Made by a program: the position numbers. From a plasmid, in NCBI RefSeq assembly GCF_988243305.1, contig NZ_OZ547137.1: a stretch of 64,000 bases of DNA; one strand, given 5' to 3'. Below, one piece after another: positions 60,001-63,000 of the stretch (positions within the stretch are counted from its first letter, which is position 1; each line of letters begins with the position of its first letter).

Positions 60001-63000
60001 GGGTTCGGCGGAGACTGGCAGGTGCGCCAGCAGCTGCCTGTCGGAGTCGGGCCTGACGACCGGATGCCGCCAGGCAGCCGGGAGCCGAAGGTGCGCCCGG
60101 CAGACAGGACAACACTGCAGTAGTCAGAATCAGAGCGGCAGGAAAAAGAAGAGCAGTAGCAGTAGCAGTAGCAGTAGCAGTAGCAGGAACAACAACATCA
60201 TCAGTAACAGACAAATGACAGGTCTGAAAAGACAGAAGCCCCCATCAGAACGTCCGCGTAATGAAAGGGGCGGCGCGTGAGCGCGGCCCCTTTCAGCGCC
60301 ACCGGCGCGCGGTCTTTTCCCTGCGCGGGCAGACGGGCATTTATCCTCCCGCCAGCCCTGTGTCATCAGGCACGCAGACGAATAATCATCGTCGGGACAT
60401 CGGTATAAGCAAACGTGCCGCGCGGCAGCTCCTCGCGGACGTCAGAAAACGGTAACAGCTTCTCCTGCTGGCGCGGCCCGTTCAGACAGACGGCAACCAG
60501 CACGCCACCCGGACGCAACAGGGAAAAAGCCCGCAGGATATGCCGGATATCCTGCCCGTGACTGAACGGCGGATTCATGATAACCCGGCTGTAATACTGC
60601 ACCGGCTGCCATTCCATGAAGTCGCCACACTGAACCCTGACACCGTTAAAATTTTCCCGCAGATACCGGACCAGCCCGCTGTTAATCTCCACCGCATCAC
60701 ACATGGCCTCCGGCGCGGTATCCCGAATCGCCCGCAGTATGGCCCCGGTGCCGGCAGAGGGTTCCAGAATGTGATCACGGTTGCTGATTTCCGCCAGCGT
60801 CACCAGGCGATCACAGACCGGGGCAGGAGTCACAAAAAGCTGAGATTCAGCCCGGATTTCAGCAACCGGCGCGGCGTTATCCAGCCTTGCACGCATCAGC
60901 CGGATACGTTCTCTTAACTGACTGTGCATGTCATTATCTCCGTCATCCCCCGGGGATTTCCCGGGGGGATATACCTTATTTCTGTGGGATTTCCGTGATT
61001 TTCATGTCGGTAATATACACATTCACCAGGCGGAAATTATTGTCCATTGTGCGGCGGTAGCGGTATGCCCCGTGGTCTTCTGTCTCTGCCACACTGCGCA
61101 CGGCCTTACAGTCCCGGGGCAGGGCGGCCCACTGCGCCTTTGTCATTTCCCGGAAACCTTCCCCCGGATAGTTGACTACCGGCGGACGCTTCGCGGCCTG
61201 ACTGGCGACGGCAGCCTCTTCTGCCGATGGTGCTTTGTAGTCCGTGATGCGATCGGGCGTCACTTTCATCGTGCCGCTGTACCCGAGAAAACTGTAATTC
61301 GGCGTTGTGACTGAACTCACCGCCCCGTTGCTTTTGTTCACGCGGATGATGGTCAGCCACTCGCCCCGGCTGAAAACCTGTCCGCCCGGCTCAAAATCCT
61401 GTGTCCGGGTAACCACGCCGCCGCTTTCGTCCAGCATGGCACGCTCATAGATCAGGCGGTTCTGATAGTGGTTAACCCAGCGTTGCTGATGCTGAATCTG
61501 CCGTTCATGACAGCGGATCGCAATTTCGCGGGCCTGCTCCGTGGTGATGATGTCATCATCCAGGGCCGACCATAACGATCGACTTCCTTCATACTGGCTT
61601 TTTTCTGCCGGGCGCGGATACGTATCCAGCGGGAAACAGGCGCTGATATGGTCATGACTGCTGATGAGTTTTGCCATATTCAGATCCAGCGATTCAGCCC
61701 GCCACATCGTCAGATATTTCTGCGACTGCGCGATGGTCTTTTCAGCCTTGCGCAAATCAGCTTCGATTTTTTTGATACGACGCCAGCGAACGTCCGGGCG
61801 TTCTTTATACTTCGCGTGAAGCAGTGCCGACCGCGCCCGCTCCTCCCAGTATTCCGCACGTTCAAAGAGCATCACGGCACGTTTCATGCCGTTTTCAATA
61901 CGCTGCGCATCACGACGGGCGCGGCGTTCGCTGTGATGCCCCACAAGAATGGGCTGACCGGGCGGGATCATCGCGGCCAGTCTTTCCACTTCATCAAGTG
62001 CCTGTGCGGATTCACTGGCCCGCTTTCCGCTGTATCCGGTAAACCGCTCCGCCCGTGCTTCCTGACGTTCAGCGAGCGTGCTGTCTTCATCCTCAATCTC
62101 TCCGGCAAGTGAGAGGAGCACGTCTTCCCGGCCCGGTGTCCAGGCTGGCGCGACAAACAGCGCCTGTTTGGGTGCCCAGCGAAAACCGGCATCATGCACT
62201 TTTTTATACGTCTCCGGGTCAAGACGTGACGCGGCATACAGGCGCAGTTTGTTGTCATCCGGTGAGTAGGTCGCGCGGTACATCTGCACAGGGCTGGCGG
62301 CTTCCGGGGCGGTCATGGTGATTGCTGCTAATGTCATAAAATGTTCTCCTTCCGTCTGTTGCCGCCCCTCGCGGGGCGGCTCACCTCATCAGTTAAAAGC
62401 GCGTTTCAGTTCGAGTGTGCGGAGCACCTGCCCGAAGGCCGTGTTTTTCATGGCGGGGATGTGTACACCACGCCCCCGGTGAAAACTCCGGGCTATGTGT
62501 CGCCCGAAGGCTTTCAGCACGGGGTCAATTTCCGGCGCGGGGATGTCTTCGCGTCTGAAACGGGGATGACGGCGGGGCTTTACAGCCGCTGCGGAAGGTG
62601 AAACAATGCTTACAGTCATAAATGGATTCCTTATGACAGTTTGGTAACAGTGCCTTAAAGACTGGTTGCACAGTCTCTTCGGCGTGGATTAAGCAGGTCC
62701 CTGACCTGCTTTTTTCATATCTGCGTCTGACGTTCTCCGGTGTATTCCTCCTTCTGTTCCTGCGTTCTCATTACCTGCCAGCAGGATGCTGACAGAACAC
62801 ATAAATGCGTATTGCCGGAGCCTGAAATAAATCCTGATTTTTAAAGAACATCACCCGTTGAGTTTCGGGAGCCGCGGTTTTGACGTTTCGCGGGAACCTG
62901 CTGCTGTATTCCCTGTGGTATGAACTTCACCCGTTTGAGAACCTTCGCCGCAAGGGGCATCACTGCCACGGCCTGACGCACCTGTCCTGGGCAGAACGCA

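Follow-up and report, generated by a model that had tools for sequence, protein, structure and literature searches.

The hexanucleotide tract and its leading-region setting

The DNA analysed here is a window of 64,000 nucleotides (nt) from the plasmid contig NZ_OZ547137.1 (RefSeq assembly GCF_988243305.1), and the element under study is a short tandem repeat, (AGCAGT)n, which is located upstream of the promoter repeat of the ssb gene. The window contains the leading region of a tra-proficient, IncF-type conjugative plasmid which is distinct from pO157, with hok/mok, psiA, psiB, a parB-like gene, ssb, a class I S-adenosylmethionine (SAM)-dependent methyltransferase gene and the gene of a DUF3560 protein on the minus strand. 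The tract occupies the spacer between the hairpin of the methyltransferase gene and the Frpo2-type single-stranded DNA (ssDNA) promoter which drives ssb. We hold with good confidence that it is a compound microsatellite of the IncF leading region, that it is non-coding and that it is the same locus as the Escherichia coli typing marker VNTR-37, also called O157-37 (VNTR, variable-number tandem repeat). The features of the locus are as follows.

60152-60187, + strand: hexanucleotide VNTR, (AGCAGT)5 at 60152-60181 followed by AGCAGG at 60182-60187 (repeat finder, direct reading and shuffle control)
60188-60202, + strand: adjoining trinucleotide repeats, (AAC)3 at 60188-60196 and (ATC)2 at 60197-60202 (sequence and allele table)
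59509-59958, + strand: Frpo2-type (class 1) ssDNA promoter repeat, copy B (direct repeats; predicted fold, z = -12.8)
59959-60250, + strand: tail of copy B, of which the proximal part (59959-60110) has small hairpins and the distal part, with the VNTR, is purine-rich and predicted to be unpaired (copy alignment, DNA fold and purine content)
60263-60294, no strand assigned: GC-rich hairpin 3' of the methyltransferase gene, forming the upstream bound of the tail; paired in the DNA fold, a likely terminator, with no strong T-run
60366-60929, minus strand: gene of the class I SAM-dependent methyltransferase, on the upstream side of the tract (open reading frame, Pfam methyltransferase domains and plasmid annotations)
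58966-59487, minus strand: ssb, downstream of copy B (open reading frame list; annotated as single-stranded DNA-binding protein in matching plasmids)

Tandem Repeats Finder (TRF) was run on the window and reported a period-6 array of consensus AGCAGT at 60152-60186, with 5.8 copies, 100% matches and no indels; together with direct reading this confirmed the (AGCAGT)n which the initial annotation had placed at 60152-60187. When the window was shuffled with its dinucleotides preserved, the 30-nt (AGCAGT)5 pattern was matched in 0/100 shuffles, and a tract of this kind is therefore far beyond what chance would produce. The genes of leading regions are transcribed from the T-strand (PMC11541004), and the origin of transfer lies at lower coordinates; the traJ 5' untranslated region (UTR) and FinP were located at 51215-51324 by an Rfam scan. 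The + strand is therefore the transferred strand and (AGCAGT)n the sequence entering the recipient, the gene-sense strand being (ACTGCT)n. The same scan, which covered 50-64 kb, placed sok at 55173-55349 and one further, sub-threshold family (AS-pc01, described below), with no Rfam family at the tract.

The region 59490-60300 was folded as single-stranded DNA. From 59490 onwards the model gave a long copy-B hairpin on the transferred strand (approximately 59534-59855, z = -12.8), several small hairpins, an essentially unpaired segment with the tract and then the hairpin 60263-60294, which was not called by a strict terminator scan. The tract is thus predicted to be unpaired, with its start approximately 300 nt away from the promoter hairpin and outside this hairpin, which would rebuild the -35/-10 boxes. 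A consensus scan found no sigma-70-like promoter in 59400-60450. In plasmid F the elements Frpo1 and Frpo2 share 92% identity; they are located upstream of ygeA and of ssb and are required for early expression in transconjugants (PMC9849209). In the window the copy-B hairpin, which is of the Frpo2 type, drives ssb.

The promoter repeat is present in three direct copies of approximately 450 nt, copy A at 54187-54640, copy B at 59509-59958 and copy C at 62837-63285. Copies A and B share 98-99% identity. Over its first 300 nt copy C has 84% identity with A, and over the 154 nt which follow it has 95% identity with B. Each copy carries a distal tail, and the alignment of the three tails indicated that they are diverged copies of one sequence. 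The two other tails are listed here.

54637-54800, + strand: tail of copy A, purine-rich, at the Frpo1 position downstream of hok/sok; homologous to the tail of copy B and free of the hexanucleotide array
63286-63454, + strand: tail of copy C, purine-rich, with a GAAGAAGAG/AAG repeat at 63398-63422 (TRF); cut short by an IS66-family fragment

It had been noted from the sequence that the AGCAGT tract stands beside copy B only, copy A having a different purine-rich tail and copy C a GAAGAAGAG/AAG-type tail, and this distribution among the three copies was confirmed. The purine-rich character also held on the + strand: only three stretches in the 64 kb reach at least 75% purine over 80 nt, the tails of copies A and C are two of them, and the tail of copy B has approximately 68%. 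An IS66-family transposase fragment at 63455-63835 abuts and truncates the copy-C tail, where it replaces the sequence which is seen upstream of the 9-nt repeat in plasmid F and in two of the metagenome contigs (L027 and L029).

Frpo/ssi class 1 ssDNA promoters, found in IncF and IncI leading regions, are reportedly the subject of Masai and Arai 1997 and of Couturier et al. 2023. The tract shares with them that it belongs to an extended repeat unit which carries a Frpo2-type hairpin on the transferred strand; it differs in that their hairpin itself forms the -35/-10 boxes, whereas the tract lies outside it, approximately 300 nt upstream, and is dispensable for hairpin formation. The Frpo literature consulted, including PMC9849209, PMC11541004 and bioRxiv 10.64898/2026.01.09.698686, makes no mention of the tails or of their repeats.

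Copy-number variation and the process behind it

More than 5,000 plasmids of PLSDB match the region, and this flank type is seen in approximately 1,800 of the best-scoring 5,000, with E. coli, Klebsiella, Salmonella and Shigella among their hosts. Alleles were counted in 93 independent sequences, comprising 16 complete IncF plasmids and 77 metagenome contigs. The contigs were collected by the B-type left flank (78 were returned and 77 counted), a scan which misses the abundant hybrid-tail class represented by plasmid L099 and pO157, and hence the allele counts describe one flank class only, that with the B-type left flank.

The 16 complete plasmids have near-identical flanks and carry n = 1, 2, 4, 4, 5, 6, 6, 6, 7, 7, 7, 8, 8, 9, 10 and 13 units, and n ranges from 1 to 13, chiefly 2-7, in the 77 contigs. 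A spread sample of 21 further PLSDB plasmids gave match lengths which imply approximately 1-14 units; these lengths step by 6 nt, with an extra 3-nt step from the ATC repeat. The adjoining repeats are polymorphic too, as (AAC)1-3 and (ATC)1-2. Sequences with identical 467-nt flanks formed seven groups, and differing alleles were present in all of them (7/7; for example 4, 9, 10 and 13 in one case), while two pairs with identical 2.6-kb flanks also differ, with n = 7 against 3 and 7 against 8. Because identical flanks carry different n, the tract changes faster than point substitutions accumulate over kilobases. The comparison across related plasmids thus found a repeat number which is anything but invariant, and the earlier suggestion that slippage changes the length of the tract and makes it hypervariable between plasmids is supported.

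Change within a culture has been published for the two markers to which the tract is related below: O157-37 changed twice in serial passage, with a rate of 4.3e-5 per generation in those strains (PMC3777172), and one unit of STTR10 was gained in 5/99 colonies (PMC5183578). The within-culture comparison suggested earlier has thus been made already, on this locus and on its counterpart, and there, too, repeat number is not invariant. The variability suggested for the tails in general extends to the copy C-type tail, whose 9-nt repeat CTCTTCTTC (GAAGAAGAG) differs in unit number among plasmid F, the window and the contigs L027 and L029, F having more units than the window.

The proposed process is slipped-strand mispairing of whole 6-nt units, together with the adjoining 3-nt units, during DNA synthesis, and the resulting length changes would be selectively near-neutral. 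The single-stranded transfer step and the discontinuous synthesis of the complementary strand may add opportunity for slippage. Slippage is favoured because the units are perfect, the steps are whole units and the range of alleles is wide, and because it agrees with the general VNTR literature (PMC5183578, PMC3777172).

As a separate observation, many contigs (L017-L094) terminate no more than a few hundred bases from the tract, or else approximately 2.74 kb beyond it, where the neighbouring Frpo copies lie; the repeat of approximately 450 nt, present three times, appears to be a routine cause of breaks when IncF leading regions are assembled from short reads. The density of single-nucleotide polymorphisms (SNPs) is far higher at 60215-60366, upstream of the tract, than in the stretch which separates the tract from the Frpo core.

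It was also considered whether the variation is an artefact of assembling or sequencing a low-complexity tract. Many metagenome contigs do break near the region, and the array of one of them (L086) contains an irregularity of 1 nt. The breaks, however, coincide with the triplicated Frpo repeat and not with the tract, the arrays are at most approximately 84 nt and so below typical read length, and complete, independently sequenced plasmids differ by clean multiples of 6. The locus is moreover routinely sized by polymerase chain reaction and capillary electrophoresis, with 3-17 repeats in 202 strains. Fragment sizing effectively refutes an artefact, to which we give next to no probability.

Contingency loci, as in Haemophilus and Neisseria, undergo phase variation by slippage of repeats. 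The tract shares with such loci a perfect short tandem repeat which mutates by whole units at a high rate. It differs in that units of 6 and 3 nt preserve the frame and cannot switch a reading frame on or off, and in that the scan of 59400-60450 gave no promoter spacer or regulator site overlapping the tract. A phase-variable contingency locus was accordingly rejected, given the frame-preserving units and the lack of a promoter-like site in 59400-60450.

Relation to the typing markers O157-37 and STTR10pl

In pO157 (L101), TRF located (CAGTAG)7.3 at 927-970, between ssb and the methyltransferase gene. The primer sequences of the PulseNet marker VNTR-37 are published (PMC3321953), and they match pO157 exactly at 876-912 and 1033-1059, on either side of this repeat. 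Locus 37 is listed for pO157 with a unit of 6 bp and, in 202 German strains, 3-17 repeats, 11 alleles and a diversity of 0.82 (PMC3321953, Table 1), and the same source lists the pO157 open reading frame (ORF) L7083 as containing VNTR-37. One of the two primer sites is retained beside the tract of the window.

60248-60274, minus strand: site of the PulseNet VNTR-37 forward primer, with 2 mismatches, adjoining the tract

The reverse-primer site is not beside the tract. Its sole match within 3 mismatches falls in the tail of copy A, at 54686-54722 (3 mismatches), and the two sites are therefore approximately 5.5 kb apart, one in tail A and the other next to the repeat. Since the left flank is of the recombinant B type and the reverse site is not adjacent, the standard O157-37 assay would give a null allele for this plasmid, and it would likewise miss other plasmids with this recombinant left flank.

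VNTR-37/O157-37 is reportedly used in multiple-locus VNTR analysis (MLVA) as in Keys et al. 2005 and the PulseNet protocol of Hyytia-Trees et al. 2006. The window shares with it the repeat unit AGCAGT/CAGTAG, the right flank including the forward-primer site, changes by whole units, many alleles and the position from ssb to the methyltransferase gene, a gene order which is also present in the 16 IncF plasmids. The differences are the left flank, which is a B-type Frpo tail in the window, and the plasmid, which is not pO157. The tract is thus the orthologue of VNTR-37/O157-37, a public-health fingerprint marker for E. coli O157, and in this respect it is already known. Literature searches on the repeat sequence itself and on simple-sequence repeats in leading regions gave no match; the link to MLVA was reached via the (GAACAG)15 found in a pSLT-like plasmid.

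This pSLT-like plasmid (L096) has (GAACAG)15.2 at 1393-1483, upstream of a Frpo-like repeat and ssb. Primers which we take to be those of Lindstedt et al. 2004 for the Salmonella marker STTR10pl match it exactly on either side of the (GAACAG) array. STTR10pl, an MLVA locus of Salmonella Typhimurium carried by the virulence plasmid pSLT, has been placed in the intergenic region between PSLT064 and ssbB (PMC6459517). It has in common with the window a perfect 6-bp array at a homologous site, namely the distal tail of a Frpo-like repeat upstream of ssb; the pSLT flanks align with the E. coli tail, and the pSLT array is likewise predicted to be unpaired in the ssDNA fold. It differs in the unit (GAACAG, sense CCTGTT, against AGCAGT), in its typically longer arrays (15 units in L096) and in the upstream gene, which is a homologue of DNA polymerase III theta in pSLT and the methyltransferase in the window. 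The tract of the window is accordingly a positional homologue of STTR10pl, and not the same marker. An ORF of 63 amino acids (aa) with a (Leu-Phe)n core, annotated over the L096 array by the Prokaryotic Genome Annotation Pipeline (PGAP), overlaps the 3' end of the DNA polymerase III theta homologue.

Plasmid F has no AGCAGT array, and its tail upstream of ssb is of the C type (L095, 7980-8080). In L099 and pO157, by comparison, the AGCAGT array is joined to an A/C-type tail, and since the same array is thus found with a different tail, the tail types recombine. Three different tandem repeats are therefore located in Frpo-type tails, namely O157-37, STTR10pl and the 9-nt repeat which precedes ssb in F, and two of these are standard typing markers. 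The modestly new point is that Frpo tails recurrently harbour tandem repeats, within a region which is single-stranded at every transfer. What is left as novelty is the structural position shared by O157-37 and STTR10pl, and it indicates no function. In practical terms the tract is a fast molecular clock on thousands of IncF plasmids; it separates plasmids which are identical over kilobases, and it will show as a difference between 'identical' outbreak plasmids.

Coding potential and possible selection on the tract

Open frames across the tract were listed in 56 sequences, and five candidate ORFs were scanned against Pfam and NCBIfam, in which none of them had a match. The data were too few for a formal test of the ratio of non-synonymous to synonymous substitution (dN/dS). 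In most plasmids PGAP places two overlapping ORFs of the minus strand across the tract. In all sequences each of the three frames of the sense strand is free of stop codons over the tract, and no frame stood out. The ATG at 60366 shares bases with the stop codon of the methyltransferase gene; a T/A polymorphism at 60365 removes it in 16/55 sequences, and a 1-nt indel at 60312 (C present in 37 and absent in 18 of 55) shifts the upstream part of the annotated ORF; both polymorphisms sit between the methyltransferase stop codon and the hairpin. An internal ATG is absent from the haplotype of the window. No Shine-Dalgarno sequence was read before the candidate starts, population SNPs inside the ORF are mostly non-synonymous, and the ATG-initiated ORFs of the paralogous tails use different frames, that of tail A being frameshifted in F. 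The tract is most likely non-coding, and the annotated ORFs bear no clear sign of coding.

Several points weigh against a non-coding tract which changes by near-neutral slippage. Both the slippage and the neutrality are inferences. All length changes are multiples of 3, and one sense frame gives a very hydrophobic peptide, poly-Leu here and (Leu-Phe)n in pSLT. Over the approximately 27 nt just upstream of the tract, five differences separate pSLT from E. coli and four of them are synonymous in the Leu frame, a sample which is too small for significance. In addition, a hexanucleotide array is retained here by diverged plasmids although their repeat unit is another, and such retention could reflect selection rather than a mutational hotspot alone.

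The first three of these sequence features are what would be expected if the tract were the variable core of a small hydrophobic protein, encoded on the minus strand in the CTG-CTA frame and reading ...PVICLLLMMLLF(LL)nFFFLPL*, in which a change of units would alter the length of a membrane helix while the frame is kept. This reading is favoured by the PGAP ORFs across the tract in most plasmids, by L7083 of pO157, with VNTR-37 inside it, and by the 63-aa ORF of pSLT, MPGDVFFWPGCVIFFLPVIIRC(LF)nILLLIFPDRFR, over STTR10pl; the Leu frame is also closed by one and the same TGA in all tail classes. A pyrimidine-rich, T-rich strand, however, yields hydrophobic 'peptides' in any frame, and here all three are open. 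The start is not conserved, considering the loss of the ATG at 60366, the indel at 60312 and the missing internal ATG, and the candidate starts lack a Shine-Dalgarno sequence. The alignment of pSLT with E. coli needs a 2-nt gap, a few codons before the tract, the ATG ORF of the paralogous tail A runs in a different frame and is frameshifted in F, and to this are added the mostly non-synonymous SNPs and the missing family match. We consider a small protein improbable.

The persistence of hexanucleotide arrays at the same site in diverged plasmids bears on another explanation, in which selection maintains the tract for tuning. As an unstructured, purine-rich spacer of variable length on the transferred strand, it would adjust folding or the loading of SSB protein beside the Frpo2 hairpin, or else the progress of complementary-strand synthesis, and early expression of ssb and psiB would be modulated in the fashion of a contingency locus. 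All three Frpo copies have purine-rich tails, which are among the most purine-rich stretches of the window, and in the E. coli and pSLT folds the tract is predicted to be unpaired beside strongly folded DNA. Hairpins of ssDNA promoters can stall the conversion to double strand and prolong early expression (bioRxiv 10.64898/2026.01.09.698686), and STTR10 alleles drift to mid-range lengths (PMC5183578). Mid-range bias is, however, also explained by length-dependent mutation. Between the base of the promoter hairpin and the start of the tract there are approximately 300 nt with several smaller hairpins, n is continuous from 1 to approximately 14 with no preferred states visible, and the tails of copies A and C do without the AGCAGT array. 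Deletion of Frpo2 or of ssb had no measurable effect on the transfer frequency of F (PMC9849209), which leaves little to tune. A tuning role is in our estimation quite unlikely, and the non-coding microsatellite is retained as the preferred explanation of the tract.

A broader form of these ideas is that the distal tails of Frpo/ssi class 1 elements are a conserved functional module, acting either as a length-tuned, unstructured purine-rich segment or as a variable-length hydrophobic micropeptide in the new host. If so, a single element under selection would be read out by both O157-37 and STTR10pl; we regard this as a very doubtful proposition.

DnaG recognises CTG on the template. The tract was considered as an array of priming sites for the complementary strand, and this was rejected, the transferred strand having CAG, and not CTG, in each unit.

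Two further observations concern the neighbouring genes. The sub-threshold Rfam match AS-pc01 (RF02875, 'antisense to pHK01_035') lies at 62614-62714 on the + strand, with 72 bits against a gathering threshold of 79 and E = 2.9e-11, and it is antisense to the region just upstream of a 76-aa ORF at 62389-62619. The parB-like gene at 56660-58624 on the minus strand, of the ParB/Spo0J family, has an in-frame stop at 58286-58288 (...GIIPAD*PVRVKV...) which divides it into ORFs of 112 and 525 aa, and it may represent a pseudogene or a sequencing error.

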